DNA from: Candidatus Eiseniibacteriota bacterium
Lineage (GTDB): Bacteria > Acidobacteriota > Terriglobia > Acidiferrales > UBA7541
DNA length: 24,000 nt
Assembly (NCBI GenBank): GCA_035518915.1
Contig: DATIXE010000051.1
Location: 5,314-29,313, forward strand
Reading direction: 5' to 3'
The notes below the pieces were generated by a model. The model did not search any database. It was not told where the DNA came from and saw only the letters and a list, made by a program, of their open reading frames with translations. Of the stretch, positions 2,213 through 19,126 are shown piece by piece. Every line of letters starts with the position of its first letter. Position 1 is the stretch's first letter. A program made the translations under genes and the position numbers.

Positions 2213-2247
2213 GGCGAACGATTATCGTAACGGAAATCCGCGCGGCC

Positions 2248-2286: not shown

Positions 2287-2311
2287 CGGTCCATTGGGTT
2301 TGGCTTCGGAA

Positions 2312-4738: not shown

Positions 4739-6514
4739 TCAGGGCACGATGGGAAGCACCAGAGCGGAGGGATGCTCGCTATCGTGATAAATCGTATTGG
4801 TCGCGACCTTCATTTTCGAACCAGTGGCCGAGTCTTCGCCGCTATTCAGGTTGCGAGCGAAGCGCGGGAAGTTGCTGCTGGAGACTTCCAGACGCAGCCG
4901 GTGTCCGGGAAGAAAAACGTTGCTGGTGGCCCAGAGATCGAGCGCCAGGTGATAGATTTCGCCGGGGTTGGCGAAGTCCGGCTTTTCCCTTGAGTCGCGG
5001 TAGCGCAAGCGGAGAATACCTTCGGTCAAGTTCTGGGCGAAACCATCGGGCCAGACGTCTACGAGTTTGCCCGTGAAATCGGTGTCTTTCGCGGAAGTCG
5101 CCGCAAAAAGGTCAAGCGTGATTGGGCCGGTGACCTCGGTCTCCTTCGTGAATGCGGGGGTCGTGTAGACCAGGACATCCGTGCGCTCTTCCGCAGGCCG
5201 CTGATCACGCGGACCGGGAGCGAGGTGCTTGCTGTCGCAACAAAGTGGTCCTCCGATGGTTGGAACGGGATTGGCTGGATCATATCGGAAGGAGTCTTTG
5301 GGTTCCGACGCAGGGAGATCGGTACTTAGGAGGCCATCGCCAGTTGATCCGTTGGCCCTTCCGGAAGAGTGCAGGAAGTATTTTGTAGACCGAGCGCGAG
5401 CCAGGGGCCAATCGTCTTCGTCACGCCACTGATTTTTTCCCATGACGAATAGACGCACGCGCTTGGGACCTGCGAAAGTGTTCTGAACACCCTTGAAGAG
5501 ATAGTCGTACCAGTTGATGACGATGTCGTCGAGGTCGTGCGGCGCATCGGGGCCGAAGTCCACGTCGCCGATTTTGCGTGCGGTAGACCACCCGGAATGG
5601 CCCCCGATCTCGACCAACAAGCGCTGTCCGTTGCGAGCCGCATCGCTGCCCGCCCTTGTTTTGAGCAGTGTGTAATTTCGGAGAGTCCCGCCGAGAAAAA
5701 TGTCGTACCAAGCGCCGATATTCAGAACCGGAACCTGGATGTGGGAATAGGATTCTTCGATGGAAAGCGCTTTCCAATAGTCGTCGTAATTCGGGTGCGC
5801 CAGCCAATCCTGATAATAGGGCGCTAGGCCACGGAGATCGGGAACCTCAAGAACGGGATAGTCCTTGAGCGGCAAGGTGTTTTTCCAGACGAGCGGATTG
5901 GAATCCTCCACAACGGTTCGCGTCAACGTATTCTGCGCCAGTTGGCTGGTCCATGATTGGTCGAACCATTGTTCGAACGCGCCGCCCTGGTAGGTCCAGT
6001 TTTCATGGTAGTTGGAGGCGGTGACGTGGGGGGCGATTCCGGCGAGGTGCGGAGGGCTGGCGATGGCGGCAAGAAATTGCGTGGCTCCAACGTAGGAACC
6101 GCCAAACATGCCTACTTTACCGTTCGATTGTGGCAATGCAGCAGCCCATTCGACGGTGTCGTAGCCGTCCTGCGCTTCGTGGCGGAAGGGATACCATTCG
6201 CCTTCCGAGGTGTAACGGCCGCGGACGTCCTGCACGACGACGAGGTATCCTCGTGCGGCGGCCCGCATGCCGAAGGCTCGTGCACCACTCTTGTTGTAAG
6301 GGGTGCGCTGGAGGAGGACGGGATATTTTCCGTCGGTTCTGGGGCGATAGATATCGGCCTTGAGCACAACGGCGTCGCGCATCTTTGCCGGGACATCCTG
6401 CTCGACAATGACCGAATCGGATTGCGCATGAGAAATCGCAGGCGCCAGAAAAATCGAAGTCAGGACAGCAACGGCAACTACATGCGGGAACAATCGGTTA
6501 CCGAACCATTGCAA
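4739..6514 (-). CDS. CocE/NonD-family hydrolase (S15 X-Pro dipeptidyl-peptidase-like), secreted
   Basis: 591-aa ORF with a TTG start and a GGGGG Shine-Dalgarno-like run upstream. It has a signal peptide (..FLAPAISHAQS), YRPRTDGKYPVLLQRTPYNK, the nucleophile elbow GMFGGSYVGATQ and a C-terminal galactose-binding-like domain (LRLRYRDS..GHRLRLEVSSSNFPRF). Confidence 0.9.
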   Translation of the reverse strand: MQWFGNRLFPHVVAVAVLTSIFLAPAISHAQSDSVIVEQDVPAKMRDAVVLKADIYRPRTDGKYPVLLQRTPYNKSGARAFGMRAAARGYLVVVQDVRGRYTSEGEWYPFRHEAQDGYDTVEWAAALPQSNGKVGMFGGSYVGATQFLAAIASPPHLAGIAPHVTASNYHENWTYQGGAFEQWFDQSWTSQLAQNTLTRTVVEDSNPLVWKNTLPLKDYPVLEVPDLRGLAPYYQDWLAHPNYDDYWKALSIEESYSHIQVPVLNIGAWYDIFLGGTLRNYTLLKTRAGSDAARNGQRLLVEIGGHSGWSTARKIGDVDFGPDAPHDLDDIVINWYDYLFKGVQNTFAGPKRVRLFVMGKNQWRDEDDWPLARARSTKYFLHSSGRANGSTGDGLLSTDLPASEPKDSFRYDPANPVPTIGGPLCCDSKHLAPGPRDQRPAEERTDVLVYTTPAFTKETEVTGPITLDLFAATSAKDTDFTGKLVDVWPDGFAQNLTEGILRLRYRDSREKPDFANPGEIYHLALDLWATSNVFLPGHRLRLEVSSSNFPRFARNLNSGEDSATGSKMKVATNTIYHDSEHPSALVLPIVP

Positions 6515-6774
6515 CGGCGCACCCCCAAAGGCGCATCGTATGTTGGGCGCCCCAGATCGTCAACCAAGTATCGGCGCCCTCTGGCGCGAGCTCAGGTCAG
6601 GATATCTTTCGCGGGCTGGAGCCTCAGGATGGCGCAGGGGAAAAATCCAAGACTCAGCTCAGCGCGAATCGCCTGATGGAAGATCGGAGCGGATGGATTG
6701 TAGTGAGCGGAACTTGCCATCCATGGCCACAGGCCACAGACTGCTTGAAGTAACACCTGGCAAGGAGCATTTTG

Positions 6775-7227
6775 ATGAATGACACGCTGGAGGCTGCCGA
6801 ACCGGTGCGGGAGAACGAGGCGACCCAAACGAATTCACAATTCCGATGGATAGGGTGGTCGAGCCTGTTTATCGCGATGGTGCAGAGCGTATGCACGATG
6901 TTTGTCGCACTGAGCGGGATGAGATTGTTGCTCGGCGCGGCGGCGTTTGCATCGGCGCTCGGCGCGATGCAGATCCTCGACAAGATCCATACCGATGCGA
7001 TTCGCTTGCCCATGGTATTGTTCGCGCTTGCCGGGGCGATGTTCAATCTGGCGGCATTGTGGCAGGTGCGGCGATTGCGGAGACGCGCGGCGTCAGCGTG
7101 GAGACAAAAGTCCGTGTCCAGCAGCAAGTTTGCTTCGGAAAAAGTGCAACTCGCCTTGTCCCTGCTGACTCTGGGGCTGCTGCTGGTGGAATCGTATTTT
7201 CACTTCCAGAAGACGCATCATTTCTGA
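6775..7227 (+). CDS. Hypothetical integral membrane protein (about 4 TM segments)
   Basis: AAGGAG at 6762-6767 lies 7 nt before ATG 6775. Hydrophobic segments are WSSLFIAMVQSVCTMFVAL, LLLGAAAFASALGAM, LPMVLFALAGAMFNLAALW and LALSLLTLGLLLV. I recognise no family. Confidence 0.7.
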   Translation: MNDTLEAAEPVRENEATQTNSQFRWIGWSSLFIAMVQSVCTMFVALSGMRLLLGAAAFASALGAMQILDKIHTDAIRLPMVLFALAGAMFNLAALWQVRRLRRRAASAWRQKSVSSSKFASEKVQLALSLLTLGLLLVESYFHFQKTHHF

Positions 7228-7252: not shown

Positions 7253-7516
7253 TTAGACCGGTTTTTCGGGGGAAGTGGTTCCTTCCCGCAGGATTCTTTC
7301 CAGTCGCTTGTGCAGGCGCTCGCTGTAGCCCACCGGCAACTCGTAGGTGCGATCATCCGCAGTCAAAACCAGAATATTTCGCGTGGAATCCAAAATGGCG
7401 GAGCACACTTCGCAGTTTTCCAGGTGGTTCTCGATATCCGTGAGCAGGGCGGCATCCAGCTGATGGTCAAGGTACTCGGAGATGTGCTCCCAGACGTGTT
7501 TGCACTCCAGCTTCAT
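7253..7516 (-). CDS. Soluble zinc-binding (ZAS, zf-HC2) anti-sigma factor
   Basis: 87-aa ORF whose ATG overlaps the stop codon of the upstream sigma gene (ATGA). It has an H-x3-C-x2-C motif (HLENCEVC) and a Cys 26 residues upstream of that His. There is no hydrophobic segment. Confidence 0.85.
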   Translation of the reverse strand: MKLECKHVWEHISEYLDHQLDAALLTDIENHLENCEVCSAILDSTRNILVLTADDRTYELPVGYSERLHKRLERILREGTTSPEKPV

Positions 7517-8142
7517 CCGAAGAACCTCCCGAAAAAGCCCTTTCTGGCCGGCACGGCGGTTTTCAAATAAGGAGCCAGAAGCTTCTGCAGCATCATGCGA
7601 GCCCGGTGCAGCCGTACTTTGACCAGATTAATACTTATGCCCAGTGCGGCGGCAGTTTCCACCTGGTTGAGTTCCTCAAGGTCACGCAGGACCAAAACCT
7701 CTCGATAAAGGGGCGGCAGATGGTCCACCGCTTCCCGTAATTTCAATCGCAACTCCTTCTTCTCGAGGGCTGCGGAAGGAATTTCGCGCCAGTCGGTGAG
7801 AACCGCAGGCGTGAAATCCCCTTCCTTCTCCGCGATCATTTCTTCGAGCGAATCCTGAGGGACGAGTTTCGCCCTGCGGAGCCGCTGCCGGGCTTCGTTC
7901 ATGGCGATGGTCACGAGCCAGGTGCTGAATTTCGCATCGCCCCGGAAACCCTTCAAGTGGCGAAAGGCGCTAATCATCACGTCCTGGGCCGCATCCTCCG
8001 CTTCGGCCTCATTCCTCAGCATGGTGAAAACGGTCACGTAGACCAGCTTTTCATAAGGCCGTACGAGTTCATGGAAAAGGTTGGTTTCGCCCGCGAGGAT
8101 GCGGGCGATGAGTTCCTTCTCCTGCTCGGTAGCTGCCGGCAT
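7513..8142 (-). CDS. ECF-family RNA polymerase sigma-70 factor
   Basis: 209-aa ORF. Region 2 is LFHELVRPYEKLVYVTVFTMLRNEAEAEDAAQDVMISAFRHLKGFRGDAKFSTWLVTIAMNEA. Region 4 is LPPLYREVLVLRDLEELNQVETAAALGISINLVKVRLHRARMML. It is translationally coupled to the anti-sigma gene. Confidence 0.93.
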   Translation of the reverse strand: MPAATEQEKELIARILAGETNLFHELVRPYEKLVYVTVFTMLRNEAEAEDAAQDVMISAFRHLKGFRGDAKFSTWLVTIAMNEARQRLRRAKLVPQDSLEEMIAEKEGDFTPAVLTDWREIPSAALEKKELRLKLREAVDHLPPLYREVLVLRDLEELNQVETAAALGISINLVKVRLHRARMMLQKLLAPYLKTAVPARKGFFGRFFG

Positions 8143-8172
8143 GAGGCCCGAACGTCTCCCTTCGGCTCCTTT

Positions 8173-8202
8173 GTACGAGTCGGGTGACCGAGAAAGGTTA
8201 CA
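8173..8202 (-). promoter_or_regulatory. Candidate ECF-type autoregulatory promoter of the sigma/anti-sigma operon (Psig)
   Basis: The minus strand reads TGTAACCTTTCTCGGTCACCCGACTCGTAC and ends 30 nt upstream of the sigma ATG (8142). It has the same 30-nt register and the same ACTCGTAC box as the plus-strand copy at 8337-8366. Confidence 0.55.
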
Positions 8203-8336
8203 GGACCAAAGCTCTGGGGTAAATGGCGGGGTTGACGAGTGTTTGGGGCCGAGTTCGCGGAGGGGAGCTTGAGACGCGCTCGCAAATGCGGCAGGGGGAC
8301 AGGCGGACGACTTGGGCGTCTAATGAACGAAAACCT

Positions 8337-8366
8337 TGAAACCTTTTCGCGGGTGGCCACTCGTAC
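8337..8366 (+). promoter_or_regulatory. Candidate ECF-type promoter P1 for the YHS-DoxX-DinB-like-ATP-grasp-NRDE unit
   Basis: TGAAACCTTTTCGCGGGTGGCCACTCGTAC ends 42 nt upstream of ATG 8409. It has an AAC-type -35 and a CGTA-type -10 like known ECF promoters. It mirrors the copy facing the sigma gene in the same intergenic region. Confidence 0.6.
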
Positions 8367-8408
8367 TGCCTGCCACTAGACTTTTTTGGGATCGGAAAGG
8401 GGAAGCGA

Positions 8409-8873
8409 ATGAGGGCCATAGTGAAAAGAGCGATCGTGCTGACGATGCTGCTTTGGGGATTTCCGGCGCTTCCGCAGGGCGGAAAGACGTTGCAGAACCT
8501 GGATAGAAATGGAGTGGCCATTCAGGGGTACGATCCGGTGGCGTTTTTCACCCAGAACAAGCCCGTGAAGGGGGACAAGCGCTTTGAAAGTACTTACAAG
8601 GGCGCAACGTATTACTTTGTGTCGGGGGAAGACAAAGCGGCCTTCGACGCATCTCCGGGGAAGTACGAGCCTGAGTTCGGAGGATTCTGCGCGTATGGGG
8701 TTTCCAGGGGGAAGCTCGTGCCGGTGGATGTACAAGCATTCCAGATTGTCAACGGCAAGCTGTTACTCCAGTACGACCTCGACATCAAAGAGAAATTCAA
8801 CAAGGACCAGGCCGGCAATCTGGACAAGGCGAACCAGAATTGGCCGCAGCTGGTGGAAAAGAAAGGCCGCTAA
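8409..8873 (+). CDS. YHS-domain-containing exported protein (Cys form of a family I recall as containing selenoprotein members)
   Basis: 154-aa ORF with GGGGAAG before the ATG and the signal peptide MRAIVKRAIVLTMLLWGFPALPQG. It contains AIQGYDPVAFF..KG..YKGATYYFVSGEDKAAFDASPGKYEPEFGGFCAYGV, the typical YHS-domain pattern with a single conserved Cys. Confidence 0.82.
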   Translation: MRAIVKRAIVLTMLLWGFPALPQGGKTLQNLDRNGVAIQGYDPVAFFTQNKPVKGDKRFESTYKGATYYFVSGEDKAAFDASPGKYEPEFGGFCAYGVSRGKLVPVDVQAFQIVNGKLLLQYDLDIKEKFNKDQAGNLDKANQNWPQLVEKKGR

Positions 8874-8930
8874 TTCGAGGGGATCGGCGAAGGCTCGAAC
8901 CGGAGCGCCATCCAATCGGGAGAGGACACG

Positions 8931-9320
8931 ATGGGGACTAGCATTTTGAGCTGGATTTTGCGCCTGATTGCCGCAGTCATTTTGTTACAGACTTTGTTTT
9001 TCAAGTTCACCGGGGCTCCAGAGTCCATCTACATCTTCACAAAGGTGGGGGCCGAGCCTTGGGGGCGCATTGGTTCAGGTATCGTTGAACTTGTCGCGGC
9101 CATACTGCTTCTTTGGCCGCGATTCACTTGGCTCGGTTCGGCTCTGGCGCTGGGGATGATGGCCGGTGCAATCGTGAGTCACCTGACGGTGCTCGGGATT
9201 GAAGTCCAAGGGGATAAGGGGCTCCTGTTCGGGTTGGCACTGACCGTTTTTATTGCCTCGGCCATCAACTTGTTTCTCCATCGAGCGGAAATTCCAGTGA
9301 TCGGCGGGAGGCTGGCATGA
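8931..9320 (+). CDS. DoxX-family membrane protein
   Basis: 129-aa ORF with GGGAGAGGA before the ATG. It has four hydrophobic helices, and ILRLIAAVILLQTLFFKFTG..G..ELVAAILLLWPR..GAIVSHL resembles DoxX/DoxX-like proteins. Confidence 0.78.
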   Translation: MGTSILSWILRLIAAVILLQTLFFKFTGAPESIYIFTKVGAEPWGRIGSGIVELVAAILLLWPRFTWLGSALALGMMAGAIVSHLTVLGIEVQGDKGLLFGLALTVFIASAINLFLHRAEIPVIGGRLA

Positions 9321-9901
9321 ACCGGGCGATGGCAGGCGTGGCGAGAACTCCGGAAGCGGAGCCGGCGGCGGTTGGTTCGGACTTGCCGGAGTTGGTCGCT
9401 GCCGCAGGGGAAGTGCTCCAGCAAGGGCTGAATTTGCTTTCCCGGCTGGACGACGAGAAATATTCACGGATCGCGAGAGACCCCTTTAACGCCTCGGTCG
9501 GCGGGCATTACCGCCATGTGCTGGAACACTTCCAGTGCCTGATCGAAGGGATGTCCCAAAGAGTCGTCAACTACGACGCGCGGCGGAGAAATCCGCGCAT
9601 CGAGAACGAAGTGGGCTATGCGTCCGCTTCCACGGGCGAAGTTTTGAGGATTCTTCGAGGCTGGCGCGGAGAGACATTGCAGCAATCGTGCAAAACAATG
9701 AGTAGCGTCGGGTATCATTCCGGGCTTCCGGCGACAATCGATTCCAACGCCGGGCGAGAACTGGCCTACTGCGCAGCCCATGCGGTACACCATTTCGCCA
9801 TCATCCGCTTGATCTGCAACGAAGTGGGGATTGAAGTCTCCAAGGAATTCGGATACGCGCCTTCGACACTAAAGCACCAATCTTTGCTCGCCGCCGATTA
9901 G
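9317..9901 (+). CDS. Hypothetical cytoplasmic protein, DinB/YfiT-like helical-bundle candidate (His-rich motifs)
   Basis: 194-aa ORF whose ATG overlaps the DoxX stop (ATGA). GGHYRHVLEHFQCLIEG and YCAAHAVHHFAIIRLI look like the spaced His ligands of DinB-superfamily proteins. The assignment is by eye and tentative. Confidence 0.55.
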   Translation: MNRAMAGVARTPEAEPAAVGSDLPELVAAAGEVLQQGLNLLSRLDDEKYSRIARDPFNASVGGHYRHVLEHFQCLIEGMSQRVVNYDARRRNPRIENEVGYASASTGEVLRILRGWRGETLQQSCKTMSSVGYHSGLPATIDSNAGRELAYCAAHAVHHFAIIRLICNEVGIEVSKEFGYAPSTLKHQSLLAAD

Positions 9902-9912
9902 TGGGGAATCGA

Positions 9913-11526
9913 ATGAGCCTCCTGCCGTTACAAGTTAGTGGGAGTGTCGCAACGGCGATTGCCATCATTGTGGGAGCATTCGTCTCCGAGGATGCCGCTA
10001 CGATTACCGCGGCAACTCTAGCTGCGGGCAGCGTACTTGATCCCCGGCTTTCTTTTTTCAGCGCAGCTACTGGCTTGTGGGCGGGTGACCTTGGCGTATA
10101 CGCGGTGGCGCGCATTTGGGGCGAGAAGGCGCGTCGCACCTCGTGGCTGGGGCGCGCGGCCTCCTCGGCCGAGCAGGCGACTGCTGGTACGGCTGGCGGC
10201 TGGGCTTTGGCGCTGAGCCGATTTTTCCCTGGGGCACGGTTGCCCGCGTATGTTGCGGCAGGTCTAAATCGAATGCCGTTTCCTCGTTACGCGGGGATTA
10301 CGGCGCTGACGGCGTCGATCTGGACGTCCATCGTTTTCACCGCGATCTGGTTGTTCCCTGGTCAGGCGCAGACGGCTCGAGAACGGCTTGCGCAGGTAGG
10401 GATGGCGGGTTTGACGATTTTCGGGATTGTGTTTCTTTGGAAACGATTCGGCCATCACTTGCAGTTCTCATTGCGGAATCTCTGGCAGCGCGTGACACGT
10501 TGGGAGTTCTGGCCACCGTGGCTTTTCTACACTCCCGTGGCGTTGATGTGCGCCTGGCTGAGCGCGCGATTCCGCGGCATTTCCCTTCCGACCGTCGCCA
10601 ATCTGAATCAGAAAAACGGCGGGATCATTGGAGAATCCAAATACGAGATCTTGCGCGAACTGATGGAAAGCTCCCCGGAGGCCACGGCCGCCGCTTATTT
10701 GATTCCTGCCGGAGGTGACGAAGTCCGGTTTGGGAGGATTCAGGATCTCCTGGCCCGGCACGAGATTTCGTTCCCCTTCGTCTTGAAACCAGACACGGCG
10801 CAGCGAGGCGCGGGCTTCCGAAAAATCCGTTCGCTGGGCGAAGTGCAGGAATATCTGCAGCGGATTTCGCAGTCGCTGGTTCTGCAAAGATATGTGCAAG
10901 GCCCGCAGGAGGCGGGAATTTTCTATTACCGGTTTCCGGGACAACTTGAGGGGCAGATTTTCGGCATTACCCGAAAACGGTTTCCCGTGCTGGCCGGGGA
11001 TGGAATTCATTCCCTCAAGCAGCTGGTCGAATTGGATGATCGAGCGCGCTTCCTCCGTGGCGTTTACCTGAAACGCCTGGGCGCAGAGGCGAAACGAGTT
11101 CCCGCCGCGGGCGAACTTGTGAGACTGGTGGAAGCCGGAAACCACTGTCAGGGCTGCATCTTTGAGGACGGGTGGGACCTTGATTCCGAGGAGTTGCGCC
11201 GGGCGATGGACCGGATCAGCCTGCCACTGAACGGGTTCTATGTCGGGCGGTTCGACGTGCGTTATACCGATGACGACTCGCTGCGTGCCGGGAAAGGCTT
11301 CCAGGTGATTGAGTTGAATGGGGCTGCCTCGGAAGCCACGAATCTCTACGATGCAAAGAACTCCCTGTGGGCCGCCTATCGCACTCTATACCGCCAGTGG
11401 CGGCTGATTTACGCGATCGGTGCGGAAAATCGGAAGCGCGGTGCGGTGCCGCGCGCGGCGCTCAGTGTCTGGCGCGACTGGCGGGAGTTTTCATCGCATG
11501 CTTGCGAATTCCCTATCGCAGATTGA
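9913..11526 (+). CDS. Fusion protein: N-terminal DedA/VTT (SNARE-associated) membrane domain plus C-terminal ATP-grasp ligase domain
   Basis: I prefer ATG 9913 (GGGGA 5 nt upstream) over GTG 9901. The N-terminal part has FVSEDAATITAATLAAG, GLWAGDLGVYAVARIWG and LSRFFPGARLPAYVAAGLNRMPF (DedA-like), followed by two more TM segments. The C-terminal part has FPFVLKPDTAQRGAGF, LVLQRYV, GDGIHSL and FQVIELNGAASEATNLYD (ATP-grasp carboxylate-amine ligase pattern). Confidence 0.8.
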   Translation: MSLLPLQVSGSVATAIAIIVGAFVSEDAATITAATLAAGSVLDPRLSFFSAATGLWAGDLGVYAVARIWGEKARRTSWLGRAASSAEQATAGTAGGWALALSRFFPGARLPAYVAAGLNRMPFPRYAGITALTASIWTSIVFTAIWLFPGQAQTARERLAQVGMAGLTIFGIVFLWKRFGHHLQFSLRNLWQRVTRWEFWPPWLFYTPVALMCAWLSARFRGISLPTVANLNQKNGGIIGESKYEILRELMESSPEATAAAYLIPAGGDEVRFGRIQDLLARHEISFPFVLKPDTAQRGAGFRKIRSLGEVQEYLQRISQSLVLQRYVQGPQEAGIFYYRFPGQLEGQIFGITRKRFPVLAGDGIHSLKQLVELDDRARFLRGVYLKRLGAEAKRVPAAGELVRLVEAGNHCQGCIFEDGWDLDSEELRRAMDRISLPLNGFYVGRFDVRYTDDDSLRAGKGFQVIELNGAASEATNLYDAKNSLWAAYRTLYRQWRLIYAIGAENRKRGAVPRAALSVWRDWREFSSHACEFPIAD

Positions 11527-11529
11527 GTT

Positions 11530-12279
11530 ATGTGTACTCTGAGCTTTTTGCCGGTACATGGTGGCTACGTGGCGGCGATGAACCGCGATGAAGAGCGCGC
11601 GCGGCCTTTAGCGCTGCTCCCAGCTGTTCATTCAATCGGCGAGTTGAACGCTCTCTACCCCAGGGAAGCTGGCGGGGGGACGTGGATCGGAGCGAACGGC
11701 GCGGGCACTCTATTCGGGCTGCTGAACTGGTATGCCAGAGAAACGGAGAATCTCCCGAAAAAAGCGAGGTCCCGCGGCGAGGTCATTCCGCATCTGCTGG
11801 GAGATCTGGATGCGGCAACTTCGGAACGTGCGTTGTGGCAGCTGGATCTCGAGGGAATCCATCCGTTCCGCTTGATTGGTGTTTATCCCGGGGAGCGGCA
11901 AATCCGGGAATGGCGCTGGGACGCACGGCAGCTGGTCCATAAATCTCATGATTGGGGACGGCAGCACTGGTTCTCCTCCAGCCGTTCCGATACCATCGCG
12001 GAACGGGAGCGCGGAGCGGCGTGCGAACGCACGTGGAGGGGGGAGCCAAACGATCCGGCAATCTGGCTTCGCACGCTGCACTCCGGCCATATCCCCGAGC
12101 CAGGACCGTTTTCAATTTGCGTCCATCGTGCAGACGCGGCTACGGTCAGCTACACGGAAGTGATTTGGGATGGCACCCAACTCCAGATGCGCTACCTGGC
12201 AGGAAATCCTTGCCAAGCCGTGGAAATGCCCGGAGCATGGACGCTCCCTGTTTCCGCCAGCGCGCCGGGACGCGGATAG
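11530..12279 (+). CDS. NRDE-family (TANGO2-like) protein
   Basis: 249-aa ORF starting 3 nt after the previous stop codon. It has the N-terminal MC, the family-defining AMNRDE motif, GGTWIGANGAGTLFGLLN and SRGEVI. Confidence 0.88.
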   Translation: MCTLSFLPVHGGYVAAMNRDEERARPLALLPAVHSIGELNALYPREAGGGTWIGANGAGTLFGLLNWYARETENLPKKARSRGEVIPHLLGDLDAATSERALWQLDLEGIHPFRLIGVYPGERQIREWRWDARQLVHKSHDWGRQHWFSSSRSDTIAERERGAACERTWRGEPNDPAIWLRTLHSGHIPEPGPFSICVHRADAATVSYTEVIWDGTQLQMRYLAGNPCQAVEMPGAWTLPVSASAPGRG

Positions 12280-12293
12280 ACCACCCGGCCAGC

Positions 12294-12323
12294 TGAAACC
12301 TTTTGTCCCTTCGGGACTCTCAT
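12294..12323 (+). promoter_or_regulatory. Candidate ECF-type promoter P2 for the SDR-to-250-aa-protein unit
   Basis: TGAAACCTTTTGTCCCTTCGGGACTCTCAT lies in the 78-nt gap after the NRDE gene. Its first 11 nt are identical to P1, the ACTC box is in the same register, and it ends 34 nt before ATG 12358. Confidence 0.5.
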
Positions 12324-12357
12324 CCGCCAAGGAGAGTTCCGGGAAGGATTGGCGTCC

Positions 12358-13047
12358 ATGAAAGACAAGGTTGTTTTCATCACCGGCGCGAATGGAGGAC
12401 TCGGAGGTTCCGTAACGCGGGCATTTTTGCAAGCAGGCGCGAGAGTCATTGGGAGCTCGCTGCGCATCACTGCTGCGGACTTTCCGGAACCCAATTTTGA
12501 AGCCATGAGAATGGACTTCAATCAGCTTGAAGAGATTCGCCGCGGGGTGAGCAAACTTATTGAGCGATATGGCCGATTAGACGTGCTAGTGCACGTGCTG
12601 GGCGGATTCGCCGGCGGCCCCACGGTGGCGGAAACTCCCGATTCCATGTGGGAACAGATGCAGGGTCTTAATCTGACGGCCGCGTTTAAGGTATTCCGCG
12701 AATGCATTCCGCATCTTCGGAAGTCCGGGGCTGGCAGGCTTATCGCGATCGGCAGCTTGACGGCGGCGCAGCCGCACGCCCATCTGGGAGCGTACGTGGT
12801 CTCGAAGGCCGCGCTTGCGATGCTGGTGCGAACGGTTGCGCTGGAAAACGCCGACGCTAGCTTGACTGCGAATGTAATTCTGCCTGGAACGATGGATACT
12901 CCCGCAAACAGAAAATCCATGCCCGACGCAGATTTTTCAAAATGGGTGAAGACGCGGGATGTTGCGGAAATCGTATTGTCGCTGGCAGGCGAAGGCGGAA
13001 AGCATCTCACGGGCCTAGAAATCCCCATCGAGGGCGGACATGGCTGA
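12358..13047 (+). CDS. Short-chain dehydrogenase/reductase (SDR) family oxidoreductase
   Basis: It has VVFITGANGGLGGSV (TGxxxGxG), an NVL-type region, S..YVVSKAAL (YxxxK) and PGTMDTP. I prefer ATG 12358 (GGAAGGA upstream) to the TTG at 12349 given in the ORF track. Confidence 0.9.
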   Translation: MKDKVVFITGANGGLGGSVTRAFLQAGARVIGSSLRITAADFPEPNFEAMRMDFNQLEEIRRGVSKLIERYGRLDVLVHVLGGFAGGPTVAETPDSMWEQMQGLNLTAAFKVFRECIPHLRKSGAGRLIAIGSLTAAQPHAHLGAYVVSKAALAMLVRTVALENADASLTANVILPGTMDTPANRKSMPDADFSKWVKTRDVAEIVLSLAGEGGKHLTGLEIPIEGGHG

Positions 13048-13282
13048 ACGTGTCGCCGGATGGGTGATCTGGGGCATGTACACCTATGTGCTGGCCGGAA
13101 GTATTTTTGCGGGATGTTTTGTTGCTCGCGGCGTGCAGAAGGTGGATTCGGAGGCGCGAAGTGCAGGGATCGGCTTTCGATTGCTGATTTTTCCCGGAGC
13201 GGTGGCGTTCTGGGCTCTATTACTGAAGCGGTGGGTCGCAGCGGCGGGTGAACCGCCGGGAGAGAGGAACCCGCACCAATGA
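13040..13282 (+). CDS. Small membrane protein (80 aa, 2 predicted TM segments), unknown function
   Basis: Its ATG overlaps the SDR stop codon by 8 nt (ATGGCTGA). It has two hydrophobic helices (WVIWGMYTYVLAGSIFAGCFV and FRLLIFPGAVAFWALLL). Third codon positions are G/C-rich in this frame. Confidence 0.65.
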   Translation: MAERVAGWVIWGMYTYVLAGSIFAGCFVARGVQKVDSEARSAGIGFRLLIFPGAVAFWALLLKRWVAAAGEPPGERNPHQ

Positions 13283-13479
13283 TTCAGCCGCTCCGAACCG
13301 TGCATCGGCAAGTGTTCCTGTTGCTCACGCTGGCGCTTCCCCTCTTGTTTGTCGCGGGGATTCGGGCGCGGCACTGGGTGCTGACGCCGAAACCCGAATC
13401 CGGACAGCGCGCTCTTGCGGCGCCGAAGACGCGGAAGGAATTGGCCGCCACGGCTGCTCGCGGAGAGGGGCGGCCGTGA
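13279..13479 (+). CDS. Small membrane protein (66 aa, 1 predicted TM segment), unknown function
   Basis: It has an ATGA overlap with the previous gene and a GTGA overlap with the next. The TM helix is VFLLLTLALPLLFVAGI. Third-position G/C bias favours this frame over the competing 13248 frame. Confidence 0.55.
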   Translation: MIQPLRTVHRQVFLLLTLALPLLFVAGIRARHWVLTPKPESGQRALAAPKTRKELAATAARGEGRP

Positions 13480-14516
13480 GTCACGGATATGTGGCAGTCG
13501 GATGGAACGCGCAGAAGCGCGGGTACGATGTGACACTGGCGTGTGGAGTAATTTTGTACGTTGGAACTTTTGTCGGGCTAAGCGCAGTGCTGTATCCAAC
13601 GGCGACTGCGGAAACGCTTCTGATCCGCGCCTTGGGGTCCTGCGCATTTCTGATGCTCAATGTCGTGTTGTGCATTGGTCCGCTCTGCCGCCTGGATTCG
13701 AGATTTCTGCCGCTTCTCTATAACCGGCGGCATCTAGGCGTGACGACATTTCTTCTGGGCCTGGGACATGGCGCTTTCGGACTGATTCAATTTCACAGGC
13801 TGGGAAACATGGATCCCCTGCTCAGCCTGTTCACCGCAAATCGAAATTATTTCAGCCTGGCCGATTTCCCGTTTCAGCCGCTTGGTTTTCTGGCCTTAAT
13901 CATCCTGTTCCTGATGGCGGCCACGAGTCATGACTTCTGGTTGCGCAACCTGACGCCTCCCGTCTGGAAGAGCTTGCACATGCTGGTCTATTTGGCTTAC
14001 GCGCTGCTGGTGGCTCACGTCACTCTGGGACTGTTGCAATCGGAACGGAGCCGATGGCTAGTGGGAGCAATGGCGATCAGTTTGTCCGCCGTAATTTCGC
14101 TGCACCTGGCCGCGGCGCTGCGTGAGCGGAAAACGGACGATGCGAGACTCTCGCCCAGCGGCACGGGCTACTTGGCTGCATGCCCAGTCGAGGAAATCCC
14201 CGAAAAATACGCAAAAGTCGTTTCCGTTCATGGGGAGCGGGTGGCGATCTTCAAATTCGATGGGAAGATCTGCGCGCTTTCCAACGTCTGCCGGCACCAG
14301 AATGGCCCGCTGGGCGAGGGAAAGATCGTGGACGGTTGCGTGACGTGTCCATGGCACGGGTATCAATATTTGCCGGAATCCGGCGCTTCGCCGCCACCAT
14401 TCACCGAGAAGGTCTCCACGTTTCGGACGAAGCTCGCGGATGGCATGGTCTGGCTGGACCCGAATCCTCTGCCGCCGGGAAGTCGTGTGGAACCATCCAG
14501 GATTGAAAGCGTCTGA
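13476..14516 (+). CDS. Fusion protein: ferric-reductase-like (MsrQ/YedZ-type, dihaem b) 6-TM domain plus C-terminal Rieske [2Fe-2S] domain
   Basis: I chose GTG 13476 (GTGA coupling) because the ORF-track start at 13248 adds an Arg/Ala-rich, non-membrane extension that overlaps the two mini genes. There are six TM segments with conserved His residues (RRHLGV, LGLGHGAF, TSHDFW, SLHMLVYLAYALLVAHV). The C-terminus has CRHQNGPL...CPWHGYQY, which is the Rieske C-x-H / C-x2-H pair. Confidence 0.85.
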   Translation: MSHGYVAVGWNAQKRGYDVTLACGVILYVGTFVGLSAVLYPTATAETLLIRALGSCAFLMLNVVLCIGPLCRLDSRFLPLLYNRRHLGVTTFLLGLGHGAFGLIQFHRLGNMDPLLSLFTANRNYFSLADFPFQPLGFLALIILFLMAATSHDFWLRNLTPPVWKSLHMLVYLAYALLVAHVTLGLLQSERSRWLVGAMAISLSAVISLHLAAALRERKTDDARLSPSGTGYLAACPVEEIPEKYAKVVSVHGERVAIFKFDGKICALSNVCRHQNGPLGEGKIVDGCVTCPWHGYQYLPESGASPPPFTEKVSTFRTKLADGMVWLDPNPLPPGSRVEPSRIESV

Positions 14517-14525
14517 GGGATACGC

Positions 14526-15278
14526 ATGAAGGAGTTTTACATCGGGTATCTGCCCAGCGCTCCGCCCGCGATTCGCAGGCGCGTGGGGATTCTTGTGGGA
14601 CTAATTGTTCTGTTTGGCGTTGCCAGCGGGGCCTTGTTTGCGGTTGCCCAAAGCGGATTCGCGAAATCCTATTTTGAATTCGGAAAGCCAAGGGAATTTA
14701 CCGGAGTGCTGCGCCGGCACCCGTTTCCTACGTTGGTTGCGGACGACACGATTCGCGAAGGAAGTTCCTCGCCTTCCGTTTATCTTCTGGTGGCTCCCGG
14801 GAAATTTGGGGCCGATTCTCTCGTGGGCGGCAAGGATGATTGGCATGTCCGGCTGCGGGGAACGCGGATCCATCGCACGGAAGGGGAAATGATCGAGATC
14901 GAACCCGGATCCATTGTGGAAACGCCAGACTCGCGAACTTCCGCATCCCTGGAACGCGATTTGGGATATGCGCGACTATCGGGCGAGATCGTGGACACGA
15001 AATGCTACCTGGGCGTGATGAATCCTGGTGAAGGGAAAGTGCACCGTGAATGCGCAGCCCTGTGCTTAAGGGGCGGCATCCCTCCGGCTCTGGTTTCTTC
15101 AGATTTAGATGGCAAGCCGCGACTGTTTATCCTGATTGGTCCAGAGGGCGAACCGATGGCTAAAGAGGATTACTTACAACGCGTTGGACAGCCAGTTTCG
15201 ATGGAAGGCCGCATCGTGGAGAAGGATCAACTCTATTATCTGCAAGCCGATCCAGCCAGCATCGTGGCGCTTCCATAG
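14526..15278 (+). CDS. N-terminally membrane-anchored protein of unknown function with C-x12-H-x2-C-x3-C motif
   Basis: 250-aa ORF with GAGGGA 5 nt before the ATG. It has a single N-terminal TM segment (RRRVGILVGLIVLFGVASGALFAV). The C-terminal region GEIVDTKCYLGVMNPGEGKVHRECAALCLRGGIPP..GQPVSMEGRIVEKDQLYYL resembles the 109-aa secreted protein at 2312-2641. Confidence 0.75.
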   Translation: MKEFYIGYLPSAPPAIRRRVGILVGLIVLFGVASGALFAVAQSGFAKSYFEFGKPREFTGVLRRHPFPTLVADDTIREGSSSPSVYLLVAPGKFGADSLVGGKDDWHVRLRGTRIHRTEGEMIEIEPGSIVETPDSRTSASLERDLGYARLSGEIVDTKCYLGVMNPGEGKVHRECAALCLRGGIPPALVSSDLDGKPRLFILIGPEGEPMAKEDYLQRVGQPVSMEGRIVEKDQLYYLQADPASIVALP

Positions 15279-15293
15279 CTCCCTGCAGTTCCC

Positions 15294-15323
15294 GGAAACC
15301 TTTTCGATTCCCGCCACTCAAAT
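15294..15323 (+). promoter_or_regulatory. Candidate ECF-type promoter P3 for the DUF1223 gene
   Basis: GGAAACCTTTTCGATTCCCGCCACTCAAAT shares GAAACCTTTTCG and CCACTC with P1 in identical register. It ends 48 nt upstream of the TTG start at 15372. Confidence 0.45.
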
Positions 15324-15371
15324 GGAAGCTGGCTTGGTTCCTCGGCCGGCAGCATCAGGGAGGTAACTATC

Positions 15372-16196
15372 TTGATTCCGAATCTAGTACGCTCACCGTT
15401 GGTTTACGCTTCGGTCGTTGGAACCTTAGGATTGCTCGCACTTTTCCAGTTCGGCCGGAACACCAATGCGAAGGGGACCTTGCCAAGCGGCACCGCGACG
15501 GGGCCGGTACTGGTGGAGCTATTCACTTCCGAAGGATGCTCGAGTTGCCCACCAGCGGATGCTTTGTTGAAGCACTTGAGCGAACAACAGCCCGCAGATG
15601 GGATCCGGATCGTGGCGCTTGAAGAACATGTGGACTACTGGAATCACCTTGGCTGGGCGGATCCTTTTTCGTCGAGTGAATTTTCCGAACGGCAGAACGC
15701 GTATGCCGAGACCTTTGGTCGCGACGGGGTCTATACGCCGCAGATGGTAGTGGACGGGCAATTCGAGTTTGTGGGGAGCCGCAGCGGCGCCGCGCGCGAC
15801 GCCATTCGGAAGGCTGCCGCAGAACCGAAGCTGAATGTCGCGCTCACTCTGAGTGGAAGCGCCACGACGGAAGCACCGGTCGTAGACATACAGATCAGCA
15901 ATGCGAGCGGAGTTGTTCCTCATGGCGAATCGATGCTCTGGCTGGCGATTACGGAAAAGAATCTGCAATCCGACGTGAAGGCCGGAGAAAACTCAGGAGA
16001 ACTCTTGAAGCACGCCGACGTGGTCCGAAGTCTGCGAAAAGTGACCGCGCTCCCCGTGCCTATCAATTACAAGGCGCAGGTGAAGCTATCGCTCAACTCC
16101 AAATGGAATCGAGATAGTCTCACGGCGGTTGCATTCGTGGCAGAGCAAGAGTCGCGCCGGATTATCGGCGCGGGCACGGTGGCCCTGCATCGTTGA
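15372..16196 (+). CDS. DUF1223-family thioredoxin-like protein (CxxC), exported or membrane-anchored
   Basis: 274-aa ORF with a TTG start and GGGAGG 8 nt upstream. It has a hydrophobic N-terminus. VLVELFTSEGCSSCPPAD, EEHVDYWNHLGWADPFSS, FSERQNAYA and VYTPQMVVDG are the characteristic DUF1223 motifs. Confidence 0.85.
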   Translation: MIPNLVRSPLVYASVVGTLGLLALFQFGRNTNAKGTLPSGTATGPVLVELFTSEGCSSCPPADALLKHLSEQQPADGIRIVALEEHVDYWNHLGWADPFSSSEFSERQNAYAETFGRDGVYTPQMVVDGQFEFVGSRSGAARDAIRKAAAEPKLNVALTLSGSATTEAPVVDIQISNASGVVPHGESMLWLAITEKNLQSDVKAGENSGELLKHADVVRSLRKVTALPVPINYKAQVKLSLNSKWNRDSLTAVAFVAEQESRRIIGAGTVALHR

Positions 16197-16249: not shown

Positions 16250-17161
16250 CTAGTGGCGGATCGTCAAGACGGGGCACCGCGCTTGGCAGGCGAGCCTGTA
16301 AGCGACGGCCGAAGGTAATTCTCCGGTCGCGTGCTTTCCAGAGCGCATTCCGATGACGATCAAGTCGGAATTGGCTTCCCGCGCGTATTCGAGAATCTGT
16401 TCGCTGGGTTCGCCAACGCGCACCTGGAAGGATGCGGCGGTCTTTTCTGCCCAAGGTGAAGGGATGCCTTTTTTCATTCGCTGAACAAGGAAATCGCGCA
16501 CGATCTCGCGGCCGGCAGTCTGGGGATCCTCTCGATCCTCCACGACGTGAAGGACGGTTAACTCCGCGCCATGTTCGCTTTCCAGACCATACGCGAGAGC
16601 GGCAGCGCGTTCCGCGTGCGGCTTGAAATTAGTGGCATACAGGATTTTGCGGAGTTCGGTGGAGCTGGCGGGAGAAGTCTCCGCACGCATCCCCACTGTG
16701 AGAATCGGCCGTTCCGCAACTCGAAAAATCTCCTCGGCCACTGGGCCCAGTAACTGCTTCTTCGCTTGAGTGTGTCCGTGAGTTCCCAGCACGATCAGAT
16801 CGATTGAATTAGCGACCGTGAATTCCTGCAACGCCGGCCAAACTCTCTCGCCGCATAGAATCTCCGACCGTAGTTGCTCGGCGCAGCCAGTCTCTTCCAC
16901 CAGGCGTTGCATTTCTGCGCCGGCGACGGCTTTGGCCTGACGCGCGGCTTCTTCCGGGCCTACAGACGATACGTAGCGAAGAAGGCCTGACGGTATGGCA
17001 TGCACCAGAAAAATCCTGCTATCGAAATGCCGGGCGAGCGGGAGCGCGCACTGCAACGCAGCCCGGGCGCCCGCGGAAAAATCCGTGGCAACCAAGATTC
17101 TCTGGAAATTGACGCCCGAGGTCGCCAAGGCGTTTTTTGCGGTGAGTCCGCCAGTTGACAT
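16250..17161 (-). CDS. Universal stress protein, tandem UspA domains
   Basis: 303-aa ORF with two Usp repeats. The first is ILVATDFS..LVHAI..DLIVLGTHGH..LLGPVAEEIFRVAERPILTV. The second is ILYATNF..LTVLHVV..DLIVIGMRSG..LPSAVAYRLACQARCPVLTI. Confidence 0.9.
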   Translation of the reverse strand: MSTGGLTAKNALATSGVNFQRILVATDFSAGARAALQCALPLARHFDSRIFLVHAIPSGLLRYVSSVGPEEAARQAKAVAGAEMQRLVEETGCAEQLRSEILCGERVWPALQEFTVANSIDLIVLGTHGHTQAKKQLLGPVAEEIFRVAERPILTVGMRAETSPASSTELRKILYATNFKPHAERAAALAYGLESEHGAELTVLHVVEDREDPQTAGREIVRDFLVQRMKKGIPSPWAEKTAASFQVRVGEPSEQILEYAREANSDLIVIGMRSGKHATGELPSAVAYRLACQARCPVLTIRH

Positions 17162-17222: not shown

Positions 17223-17384
17223 ATGCCACGGTTCAAGCTTGTAACTGATTGATACTAAGGCAGGTAGGTGGCTTGTTGTAATGCCTCTGCGGGCGCTTGG
17301 GCCAGATGACCCATTCGGCGTGGAATTTCACGCTTTGCGCGAGTGCCGCCGGTTTCTGGCCTTGGGCGAGAACACTTGCCCCCG

Positions 17385-17413
17385 TTGGGGAGCATTGGGG
17401 CCAGTGGTATTAT
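17385..17413 (+). promoter_or_regulatory. Candidate sigma-70-type extended -10 promoter that would give a leaderless kinase mRNA
   Basis: TTGGGG (17385-17390), then 17 nt ending in TGg, then TATTAT (17408-17413). The -10 hexamer ends 7 nt before ATG 17421, and there is no Shine-Dalgarno sequence in front of that ATG. Confidence 0.3.
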
Positions 17414-17420
17414 CCTCAGG

Positions 17421-18707: not shown

Positions 18708-19126
18708 ACCGAGATACGCAACCCTTGCGCGGGAACCGCATCCTCATTGTGGAGGATAATGCCTTGGTGGCCAAATTCTTCCGCATGGCTCTGGAACGCG
18801 CAGGGGGATGCGAGTGCATCATCTCCGAGGACGTTCCTGAGATTCTCAGCCATGTTGCTGCAGGAGAAGTCGACCTGGTTTTGCTAGACGTGTCGCTAAC
18901 GAATTCGGAGTGGAAAGGCCAGGCGATTAACGGCATCGAGCTTTGCCGCCTACTGAAAGAGAGATCAACTCGACGATTGCCGGTGCTGCTGGCCACGGCG
19001 CACGCAATGAGTGGCGACCGCGAACGTTTTCTGGAATCCTCCGGCGCGGACGGATATCTTGAAAAGCCGGTGTACGATTCCTCTGTGCTCGTCGAGAAGG
19101 TCCGCAGCCTCATCAACCCCTCCTGA
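18704..19126 (+). CDS. Single-domain response regulator (receiver only)
   Basis: GTG 18704 overlaps the kinase stop codon (GTGA). The receiver features are RILIVEDN, DLVLLDVSL (phospho-acceptor Asp), LPVLLATAH and GYLEKP. Confidence 0.87.
   Translation: MNRDTQPLRGNRILIVEDNALVAKFFRMALERAGGCECIISEDVPEILSHVAAGEVDLVLLDVSLTNSEWKGQAINGIELCRLLKERSTRRLPVLLATAHAMSGDRERFLESSGADGYLEKPVYDSSVLVEKVRSLINPS

Follow-up and report, generated by a model that had tools for sequence, protein, structure and literature searches.

A Conserved Sigma Factor-Linked Island With a DedA-ATP-Grasp Ligase, a TANGO2-Family Protein and a Ferric Reductase-Rieske Protein: A Possible Role in Amino-Lipid Head-Group Modification

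Introduction

What is done, behind a zinc-type regulator, by a set of mostly unannotated membrane and cysteine proteins? The question is raised by a 24-kb stretch of contig DATIXE010000051.1 (positions 5,314 to 29,313; assembly GCA_035518915.1), referred to below as the window, in which 13 genes at 7253-16196 form an island. An extracytoplasmic function (ECF) sigma factor and its zinc-type anti-sigma factor (ZAS) are found there together with three units: unit i (a YHS-family protein, DoxX, a DinB-like protein, a DedA/VTT-ATP-grasp fusion, hereafter the ligase, and a TANGO2-like protein), unit ii (a short-chain dehydrogenase/reductase, SDR, followed by an 80-amino acid (aa) protein, a 66-aa protein, a ferric reductase-Rieske fusion and a 250-aa protein), and unit iii (a DUF1223 protein). 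All 13 genes and their domain calls, as listed in a first-pass annotation of the same DNA, are borne out by the list of open reading frames (ORFs) and by Pfam and NCBIfam. The reading proposed here, with a confidence that falls somewhat short of even, is that the island is a local ECF/ZAS regulon carrying an amino-lipid head-group ligase/translocation module (module A: DoxX, DinB-like, ligase, and TANGO2-like proteins) and a transmembrane electron module (module B: 80-aa, ferric reductase-Rieske, and 250-aa proteins, to which the 66-aa protein and, in Acidobacteriota, the SDR can be added).

In a genome scan with one genome per species, 316 stretches were found to encode a relative of the ligase, and the best 80 of these 316 were examined as loci. 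Window proteins were mapped onto 82 related loci (numbered L001 and so on) by homology-first mapping, which replaced a greedy calling of ORFs that gave antisense shadow ORFs in GC-rich loci; flanking ORFs were clustered de novo to reveal families beyond those of the window itself. Window proteins were scanned against Pfam and NCBIfam, with scores judged against the family cut-offs (given below after "vs"), and homologues of the ligase were sought exhaustively among 1.84 billion representative proteins. The best 80 loci are labeled Acidobacteriota, Verrucomicrobiota, Nitrospirota, or Pseudomonadota, and the close relatives of the window locus all carry Acidobacteriota labels, e.g., "Acidoferrum" and Acidoferrales. 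Some labels are doubtful: the source record of the window (P0121) and L012 are named "Candidatus Eisenbacteria," every close relative being Acidobacteriota, and several loci that exhibit the gene order and promoter motif of the Verrucomicrobiota type (L039, L051, L052, and L064) are labeled Bifidobacterium or Akkermansia.

Regulator and Promoters

The regulator has the architecture of an ordinary ECF/ZAS pair. The anti-sigma factor (87 aa; 7253-7516, minus strand; Pfam zf-HC2, 36.5 bits) exhibits the zinc motif H31-L-E-N-C35-E-V-C38 (H-x3-C-x2-C) and an extra Cys5, and has no hydrophobic segment, i.e., it is soluble, so that its earlier classification as a ZAS stands. Its gene overlaps by 4 nucleotides (nt) with that of the sigma factor (209 aa; 7513-8142, minus strand; TIGR02937, 108 bits vs 42.9), a group IV ECF protein in which Pfam recognizes regions 2 (Sigma70_r2, 62.6 bits) and 4 (Sigma70_r4_2, 57 bits) without region 3. 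The pair resembles SigR-RsrA in that the sigma factor has regions 2 and 4 only, in that the co-transcribed anti-sigma factor is small and soluble and combines H-x3-C-x2-C with an additional N-terminal Cys, and in that the sigma gene and the target units share a promoter motif. By score, however, the anti-sigma factor is not an RsrA orthologue (34.7 bits on the RsrA equivalog TIGR03988 vs 62.5), the promoter consensus is unlike that of SigR (GGAAT-N18-GTT), and the content of the regulon is unrelated, with no thioredoxin or mycothiol genes.

The promoter motif itself can be found at four positions. Unit i is preceded by GAAACCTTTT-N11-ACTC at 8338-8362 (plus strand), 47 nt before the YHS start, a site kept in L001, L019, L036, L007, and L010. 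The site of unit ii lies at 12295-12319 (plus strand), 30-39 nt before the SDR start, and its equivalent precedes the SDR gene in 15 Acidobacteriota-labeled loci; that of unit iii lies at 15295-15319 (plus strand), 53 nt before the DUF1223 start, and is kept in L019. A fourth copy, absent from the list of the first-pass annotation, is read from 8201 to 8177 on the minus strand (GTAACCTTT-N12-ACTC at 8177-8201), 35 nt upstream of the sigma start, and is also present in L001 and L019; this copy implies, as far as a motif can, that the sigma factor is autoregulated. GAAACCTTTT occurs exactly three times in the 24 kb vs 0.02 expected, and GWAACCTT-N13-ACTC four times vs 0.00 expected, with one copy per unit and the fourth ahead of the sigma gene. 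All four sites recur in L019, whose ligase is 66% identical, and two recur in L001. The proposal that a shared motif drives the units is thereby strengthened. Within the spacer of the unit ii promoter (12305-12319, plus strand), a perfect inverted repeat, GTCCC-TTC-GGGAC, can be seen that is not in the other two plus-strand promoters. Scans of the region for sigma-70-type promoters and for terminators gave counts at or below chance, with no excess, and an Rfam search of the window returned no RNA family. Genes within units are spaced by -8 to +57 nt, with overlaps of ATGA at 9317, ATGGCTGA at 13040, ATGA at 13279, and GTGA at 13476, exactly as had been described.

As the strict pattern missed most relatives, looser clade-specific patterns were used instead. 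In the 29 Acidobacteriota-labeled loci, G[AT]AAC(C)TTT-N10-14-CTC-N-[ACT]A was found in 35 copies vs 0.4 in shuffled sequences, nearly every copy preceding unit i (YHS/DoxX/DinB) or unit ii (SDR). The remaining 43 loci, mostly labeled Verrucomicrobiota and including L027 (Nitrospirota) and L041 (Pseudomonadota), exhibit another ECF-type motif, TGTAAGG-N13-16-CGAC, in 91 copies vs 1.2 in shuffles, which precede YHS, DoxX, 80-aa, DinB, OlsB, and sigma/anti-sigma units. Since the same genes are found behind ECF-type promoters in two phyla despite a different recognition sequence, a sigma-driven regulon is supported, and these patterns can be regarded as strong comparative evidence, at the sequence level, that the island is one. 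In this regulon, sigma factor freed from its anti-sigma factor would transcribe its own operon and the three units from the TGAAACCTTTT-N11-ACTC promoters, the release being probably caused by oxidation or alkylation of the Cys/His zinc site.

Regarding loci with more than one regulator, many Acidobacteriota-labeled loci (L003 at 6183-7182; L004, L012, and L013) have, upstream of an OlsBA pair, an AhpD/CMD-family gene and an additional zf-HC2 anti-sigma-like gene. A further sigma/anti-sigma pair lies downstream of their 250-aa gene, and regulation there may involve both pairs.

Conservation and Separation of the Modules

Does the regulon hold genes that work together, or could it be that unrelated stress genes, each acting alone, are merely co-regulated by one ECF sigma factor? 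The latter explanation would cover the trio of DinB-like, ligase, and TANGO2-like genes, the electron module, and the exported Cys proteins here, and, elsewhere, lipid synthases, glycosidases, a GMC oxidoreductase, a glyoxalase-fold protein, and an aquaporin. It draws support from the breadth of the regulon, the TGTAAGG-type motif being also found before GDE, GMC, SDR, and glyoxalase genes in Verrucomicrobiota- and Nitrospirota-labeled loci.

The neighborhood is nonetheless conserved across several labeled phyla, co-localization in related genomes having been named beforehand as the test by which the first-pass proposal could fail. The trio is near-universal: in nearly all loci the ligase gene comes immediately after the DinB gene, and in 72 of the 82 it is followed by TANGO2, with DoxX next to the trio in 51 and YHS in 41. 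The ferric reductase-Rieske gene is found in 36 of the 82 loci, the 250-aa gene in 33, DUF1223 in 21, and an adjacent ECF sigma gene in 40. Module B is found in two phyla with its genes shuffled, and its three proteins always travel together. In L069 and L072, for instance, a sigma gene on the minus strand is followed on the plus strand by the 80-aa, ferric reductase-Rieske, 250-aa, DUF1223, YHS, DinB, ligase, and TANGO2 genes. Such differences of gene order between phyla speak for functional linkage rather than inherited synteny.

The two modules are separable. Pseudomonadota-labeled loci keep mainly the trio, without module B (L041 adds DoxX, DUF1223, and a sigma gene), and L088 harbors DoxX, DinB, TANGO2, SDR, 80-aa, ferric reductase-Rieske, 250-aa, and DUF1223 genes and lacks the ligase. 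With such free separation, and with no lipid synthase gene in the window, the earlier description of the island as self-contained does not hold. Free separation also speaks for mere co-regulation, against which stand the adjacency of DinB, ligase, and TANGO2 in nearly all loci, the fusion of their parts into one protein, the constant company of the three module B proteins, and the overlap of an OlsA-like gene with the ligase gene in L091 (see below). Coupling is therefore functional at least within each module, and we consider it unlikely that the island consists of co-regulated but unrelated genes; any link between modules A and B is putative.

Several gene arrangements around the modules can be added. 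In 9 of the 11 Pseudomonadota-labeled loci, a DsbD-like/ResA-like thioredoxin fusion is found shortly downstream of TANGO2, with one gene between them in L084. In the Rhizomicrobium-like L084 (13567-17620) and L085 (10466-14561), genes for a trypsin-like protease and a MoxR-DUF58-BatA/VWA set ("Bat" aerotolerance-type operon) come after the trio, and two rhodanese genes lie upstream in L085. L022, L025, L027, L029, L041, and L059 share a near-identical order of GDE glycosidase, SDR, GMC oxidoreductase, DUF1223, sigma, anti-sigma, DoxX, DinB, ligase, TANGO2, glyoxalase-fold protein, and MIP channel, with up to 8 TGTAAGG-N-CGAC copies per locus. As these six are labeled Verrucomicrobiota, Nitrospirota, and, in one case, Pseudomonadota, the arrangement suggests that a larger regulon island has moved between phyla, or that contigs were mis-binned.

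Proteins of Unit i

The first product of unit i (154 aa; 8409-8873, plus strand, as are all genes of the three units) matches the NCBIfam family NF041384, "YHS domain-containing (seleno)protein," at 140.5 bits vs 70. It had been described as an exported YHS-domain Cys protein: export is consistent with a signal-like segment at residues 3-21 and membership of the YHS family stands, but the Pfam YHS score falls just below the cut-off (28.7 vs 30.3) and there is one Cys only. This residue, C94 in G-F-C94 (G-x-C), is invariant over 43 relatives and occupies the selenocysteine position of NF041384, for which a GxU (selenocysteine) motif is listed (PMC13188914). The following genes encode a DoxX-family membrane protein (129 aa; 8931-9320; Pfam DoxX, 31.5 bits) and a cytoplasmic protein of the DinB_2 superfamily (194 aa; 9317-9901; Pfam DinB_2, 31.1 bits), in which six His (64, 67, 71, 155, 158, and 159) are invariant over 79 relatives and for which a sequence search of solved structures returned no relative.

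The ligase (541 aa; 9901-11526) combines a DedA/VTT domain with an ATP-grasp carboxylate-amine ligase domain. Its N-terminal part matches VTT_dom at 41.9 bits vs 33.9 over residues 38-149, and E30/D31, D63, R107, and R113 are invariant in relatives. Translation may start at ATG 9913, relatives having 537 aa, not 541; no record was returned by an exact look-up of the window protein, a difference in start-codon choice being the probable reason. Among the calls of the first-pass annotation, ATP-grasp alone lacked a curated sequence model. The window protein has no Pfam ATP-grasp match and reaches a cyanophycin synthetase model at E 2.3e-5, far under its cut-off; relatives weakly match RimK and ATP-grasp_3 models, and a PDB profile search with the alignment gave non-significant ATP-grasp matches (E 0.18). 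It is the AlphaFold2 model (pLDDT 81) that settles the fold: Foldseek matches it to ATP-grasp domains with E-values of 5e-9 to 1e-7 and a probability of 1.00, the nearest structures being GshF glutathione synthetase, cyanophycin synthetase (CphA1), and D-Ala-D-Ala ligase (Ddl). At the level of a predicted structure, an ATP-grasp fold is thus confirmed for the C-terminal domain. The family comprises 3342 representative clusters (50% identity) at E<=1e-3 and 1128 at E<=1e-30, publicly named only "VTT domain-containing," "DedA family," or "hypothetical."

The last protein of the unit (249 aa; 11530-12279; cytoplasmic) belongs to the TANGO2/NRDE family (Pfam TANGO2 PF05742, 35.4 bits vs 22.6). Cys2 and N18-R19-D20-E21 are invariant over 74 relatives, and the human TANGO2 structures 8sv7 and 9bwa are matched at E 1e-4 over residues 14-97. 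Human TANGO2 has an N-terminal nucleophile (Ntn)-hydrolase fold, in which Cys2 overlays the catalytic Cys of both bile-salt hydrolase and N-acylethanolamine amidase, and its binding of acyl-CoA requires the NRDE motif (PMC12359130, PMC11867700); its molecular function is unsettled (PMC12359130).

Fusions and the Link to Amino-Lipid Synthases

What is the trio for? A first indication is given by the proteins to which its members are fused. Many relatives of the ligase, of 800-1120 aa, combine an N-terminal alpha/beta-hydrolase with VTT and ATP-grasp domains (Pfam), and in P0394 TANGO2, alpha/beta-hydrolase, VTT, and ATP-grasp are found in one polypeptide. L089 harbors DinB_2 and then a TANGO2-hydrolase-VTT-ATP-grasp protein, adjoined by an OlsF-like bifunctional synthase (408 bits, full length) and a TMEM164-type membrane acyltransferase; L093 harbors DinB_2, TANGO2, and a hydrolase-VTT-ATP-grasp protein. 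In L086, TANGO2 lies between two distinct genes, one for DedA (206 aa) and the other for ATP-grasp (381 aa). Judged from gene architecture, these events of fusion and fission therefore show DedA, ATP-grasp, and TANGO2 to be working together, often with the hydrolase.

A second indication comes from the flanking genes. The most frequent extra family is an Acetyltransf_5 protein whose best NCBIfam match is the ornithine-lipid protein OlsB; in many cases an OlsA-like acyltransferase is its partner. Among the 82 loci, 32 have an OlsB-like gene no more than 10 kb from the ligase (21 of 29 Acidobacteriota-labeled loci and 11 of 41 Verrucomicrobiota-and-other loci), in various arrangements: divergent and directly upstream (L003 and L030), inside the operon between DoxX and DinB (L040, L060, and L068), downstream of TANGO2 (L055), or on the strand of the sigma/anti-sigma pair and directly downstream of it (L069). 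To these can be added L089 and L091, the latter with co-directional, overlapping genes for OlsB, OlsA, hydrolase-VTT-ATP-grasp, and ECF sigma proteins, the OlsA gene overlapping that of the ligase. Amino-lipid synthases of two non-identical kinds have thus been repeatedly recruited beside module A. In L091, two large proteins without a family match (607 and 605 aa; 11345-14982) are also encoded after the ECF sigma gene in the OlsB operon.

Of the two functional readings offered at first pass, modification of lipid head groups is strengthened by the linkage of the ligase to Ols-type synthase genes and to other domains of lipid type, and redox repair is an inference from domain content. Ornithine-type lipids keep a free alpha-carboxylate, ATP-grasp enzymes use ATP to activate a carboxylate that is then joined to an amine, and DedA/VTT proteins are implicated in lipid translocation. 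Module A would most likely act on membrane amino-acid lipids of the ornithine type, the cytoplasmic ATP-grasp domain forming an amide bond on the head group at the expense of ATP; the likeliest target would be the free carboxylate of the head group, to which an amine or ammonia would be coupled. Holding or translocating (flipping) the lipid would fall to the fused DedA domain. The TANGO2-like protein, with its N-terminal-Cys hydrolase fold, might reverse this step as an amidase, or supply ammonia or an acyl group. Assignment of module A to amino-acid lipids is the best-supported hypothesis, held tentatively and at slightly less than even confidence.

Gluconobacter makes a taurine-ornithine lipid, and biochemical knowledge of an ATP-dependent modification of the ornithine-lipid carboxyl dates back to the 1970s. 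ATP-dependent amidation of this carboxyl is a reaction without a known gene, as is the case for the biochemically known transfer of taurine (PMC12971839). Given the genetic link to OlsBA/OlsF, the trio is a candidate for an ATP-dependent reaction of that kind on the carboxyl of ornithine lipids and, more generally, for a new stress-induced change of the envelope. A search with an alphaproteobacterial ligase returned named records that are all metagenome-assembled genomes, mostly of Rhizomicrobium and Chthoniobacterales, and no Gluconobacter or other cultured carrier is found among the homologues listed.

More doubtful is the fuller proposal that the trio represents a missing enzyme type, by which ornithine-type lipid head groups are extended or amidated and the product is moved across the membrane, with the electron conduit and the exported Cys/selenocysteine proteins servicing the lipid or its surroundings. 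If true, a new class of stress-induced envelope lipid, possibly thiol-bearing or charge-changing, would be at hand. The ancestral job of the TANGO2 family would then be lipid-amide chemistry with a VTT/DedA lipid-handling domain, which would provide a biochemical hypothesis for a human disease protein.

Several points weigh against the assignment to amino-acid lipids. No OlsB-, OlsA-, or OlsF-like gene is present in the 24 kb of the window, and none is seen within 10 kb in the closest relatives, L001 and L019. The OlsB-, OlsA-, and OlsF-like proteins all score under their NCBIfam equivalog cut-offs, so that the amino acid of the lipid is not identifiable from them, and their adjacency could stem from shared regulation rather than from a shared pathway. 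Roles for DinB and DoxX are left unexplained, the ligase is missing from the otherwise well-furnished L088, and all carriers seen are uncultured metagenome-assembled genomes or metagenomic contigs. The nearest structures of the ATP-grasp domain, GshF, CphA, and Ddl, ligate soluble amino acids or peptides, to which a small-molecule product fits equally.

Such a product is the basis of another explanation, according to which the product or substrate of module A is a soluble low-molecular-weight thiol or small peptide, as in glutathione, glutathionylspermidine, or ergothioneine chemistry: the ATP-grasp domain would ligate amino acids, the TANGO2-like protein would trim an amide, and the DinB-like protein would be a thiol transferase, with the exported Cys proteins and the electron module keeping the envelope reduced. 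The structures nearest to the ligase, with the glutathione-synthetase domain of GshF among them, agree with this, as does the DinB_2 superfamily, which takes in thiol-dependent transferases and the N-domain of EgtB. The zinc-thiolate motif of the regulator is RsrA-like and the RsrA regulon includes thiol biosynthesis; in addition, the exported partners are Cys, CxxC, or selenocysteine-family proteins, and the DsbD/ResA-like fusion accompanies the trio in Pseudomonadota-labeled loci. A soluble thiol would, however, leave unexplained the fusion or adjacency of DedA and ligase in thousands of relatives, the alpha/beta-hydrolase fusions, and the recurrence of OlsBA/OlsF genes in several arrangements, and no partner gene for a cysteine or glutamate ligase is present. 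We judge it improbable.

The lipid handled by DedA could also be a carrier. Some DedA proteins recycle undecaprenyl phosphate, and module A might modify a polyprenyl-phosphate-linked cell-wall precursor, DedA being an undecaprenyl-phosphate translocase and the ATP-grasp domain amidating or extending the peptide stem with a glutaminase-like TANGO2 protein, in the manner of MurT/GatD. D-Ala-D-Ala ligases are indeed among the closest structures, and an Ntn Cys protein beside an ATP-dependent ligase resembles glutamine-dependent amidation systems, in which the two are found side by side. Yet no genes of peptidoglycan or polysaccharide synthesis recur in the 82 neighborhoods, where the recurrent partners are acyltransferases of the ornithine-lipid type, and a role in the cell wall seems very unlikely.

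Proteins of Units ii and iii

Unit ii starts with a FabG-like SDR (232 aa; 12349-13047; Pfam adh_short, 123.6 bits), whose best NCBIfam matches are FabG models, all under cut-off, and whose start is more likely ATG 12358. As an electron donor to the Rieske domain it was considered and rejected, finding no support; it joins module B mainly in Acidobacteriota. The two small proteins that follow are an 80-aa two-helix membrane protein (13040-13282; no Pfam or NCBIfam match, hydrophobic segments), with homologues in Acidobacteriota- and Verrucomicrobiota-labeled loci that always accompany the ferric reductase-Rieske gene, and a 66-aa single-helix membrane protein (13279-13479; no family match), which is poorly conserved and has 59-154 aa in relatives. 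Small ORFs in one island with an ATP-grasp gene recall graspetides, in which case the ATP-grasp enzyme would cross-link a ribosomal peptide and the 80-aa or 66-aa protein would be the precursor. This is hardly credible and was rejected, as neither the character of the small proteins nor their distribution agrees with it: they are hydrophobic membrane proteins, they co-occur with the ferric reductase-Rieske gene and not with the ligase, and the ligase is present where they are absent, in Pseudomonadota-labeled loci.

The central protein of module B (346 aa; 13476-14516) combines a six-helix ferric reductase (haem b) domain (Pfam Ferric_reduct PF01794, 48.8 bits vs 28) with a C-terminal Rieske [2Fe-2S] domain (PF00355, 58.5 bits). 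His86/His98 (H-x11-H) and His168/His181 (H-x12-H) are invariant over 35 relatives, such pairs being a pattern typical of two-haem conduits, and the Rieske ligands C272, H274, C291, and H294 (C-x-H and C-x-x-H) are intact and invariant over the same number of relatives. The distribution of charges in the sequence suggests that both ends of the protein, Rieske domain included, lie in the cytoplasm.

The 250-aa protein (14526-15278) is membrane-anchored and of no known family: none of its 1196 homologues has a Pfam domain. The window copy is 100% identical to a protein of an NCBI metagenome-assembled genome labeled "Candidatus Eisenbacteria." Cys160, His173, Cys176, and Cys180 are invariant in the alignment, and the model (pLDDT 83) consists of a membrane anchor and two OB-like beta-barrels. 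In unit iii, the DUF1223 protein (15372-16196; Pfam DUF1223, 204.3 bits vs 30.7) is exported or anchored, has an invariant Cys56-S-S-Cys59 (CxxC), and matches PDB 2axo, an uncharacterized Agrobacterium protein, with an E-value of 2.5e-25. Hydrophobic segments are found in eight of the eleven products of the three units, in agreement with the earlier count of membrane-bound or exported proteins.

Taken as an electron module, module B would pass electrons from the cytoplasmic Rieske center via two haems to the Cys3-His site of the 250-aa protein, whose soluble domain would face the periplasm; the exported Cys proteins, YHS and DUF1223, may act in the same compartment. Two results count against this part of the scheme: neither an electron donor for the Rieske domain nor a cofactor for the 250-aa protein was identified, and a comparison of the 250-aa model with the PDB gave no match at E<=1e-3, only weak OB-fold matches. 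The ferric reductase-Rieske fusion with its Cys3-His OB-like partner can be seen as a further undescribed membrane electron module.

Relation to Known Systems

The combination was said at first pass to match no characterized pathway, and none was found in family libraries, solved structures, or literature: curated families, solved structures, and the publications searched returned no function for the trio, the 250-aa protein, or the combination, and no paper describing the gene cluster was found in the literature on the combined domain names. An ECF envelope-stress regulon and lipid head-group modification are known in kind; what is new is the uncharacterized enzyme core. The island accordingly represents an unnamed, widespread system in dominant, poorly cultured soil lineages labeled Acidobacteriota, Verrucomicrobiota, and Rhizomicrobium-like.

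Regarding lipids, the likeness to OlsBA/OlsF lies in the gene linkage and in the type of reaction, whereas no window protein is homologous to OlsB, A, C, D, E, F, or G and no carrier of the island is known to make a modified amino-lipid. MprF, a lysyl-phosphatidylglycerol synthase fused to a flippase, offers an analogy in that a cytoplasmic head-group enzyme may likewise be fused here to a membrane domain of a lipid-translocating family in a context of stress or resistance. There is no homology, no MprF synthase or flippase family being found in Pfam or NCBIfam scans of the island, and MprF uses aminoacyl-tRNA, not ATP-grasp chemistry.

Regarding electron transfer, the haem b domain of the ferric reductase family with four invariant His is shared with MsrQ, and, as in MsrPQ and DsbD, the conduit is co-encoded with membrane-anchored or exported proteins; the DsbD/ResA-like fusion of Pseudomonadota-labeled loci, near the same position, recalls DsbD and CcdA-ResA. 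In contrast to MsrPQ, the island protein scores under the MsrQ equivalog NF003831 (37.6 bits vs 130) and neither the window nor the loci encode an MsrP (molybdopterin) partner; for the fused Rieske domain and the Cys3-His OB-like partner, no described counterpart was found.

The island TANGO2-family protein shares the invariant Cys2 and NRDE with human TANGO2, to which its sequence similarity is low (E 1e-4 over residues 14-97), and the VTT/DedA domain relates the ligase to TMEM41B/VMP1. To our knowledge, human TANGO2 and VTT-domain scramblases such as TMEM41B/VMP1 are not known to work together; some bacteria join TANGO2 and VTT in one polypeptide. Bacterial TANGO2 relatives are found beside or fused to VTT/DedA, alpha/beta-hydrolase, and ATP-grasp domains, near synthases of N-acyl-amino-acid lipids, a context that makes a role as "lipid-amide hydrolase or transferase" testable in a simple system.

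Neighboring Genes

Upstream of the island, the region 1049-6514 of the window encodes an amidohydrolase, an FG-GAP/ASPIC protein, and an S15 X-Pro dipeptidyl-peptidase; it is syntenic with L001, whose YncE-like gene is absent from the window, and shows no link to the island. Just past the anti-sigma gene, a 151-aa protein (6772-7227, plus strand) with about four hydrophobic segments and no family match is kept only in the closest relatives, L001 and L019. Directly downstream, a tandem universal-stress protein (16250-17161, minus strand), a histidine kinase with a protoglobin domain (17343-18707, plus strand), and a probable response regulator (~18700-19126, plus strand) can be found. The same genes also follow the island in L001 and L019, so that a haem-based gas or redox sensor is a stable neighbor in this clade.

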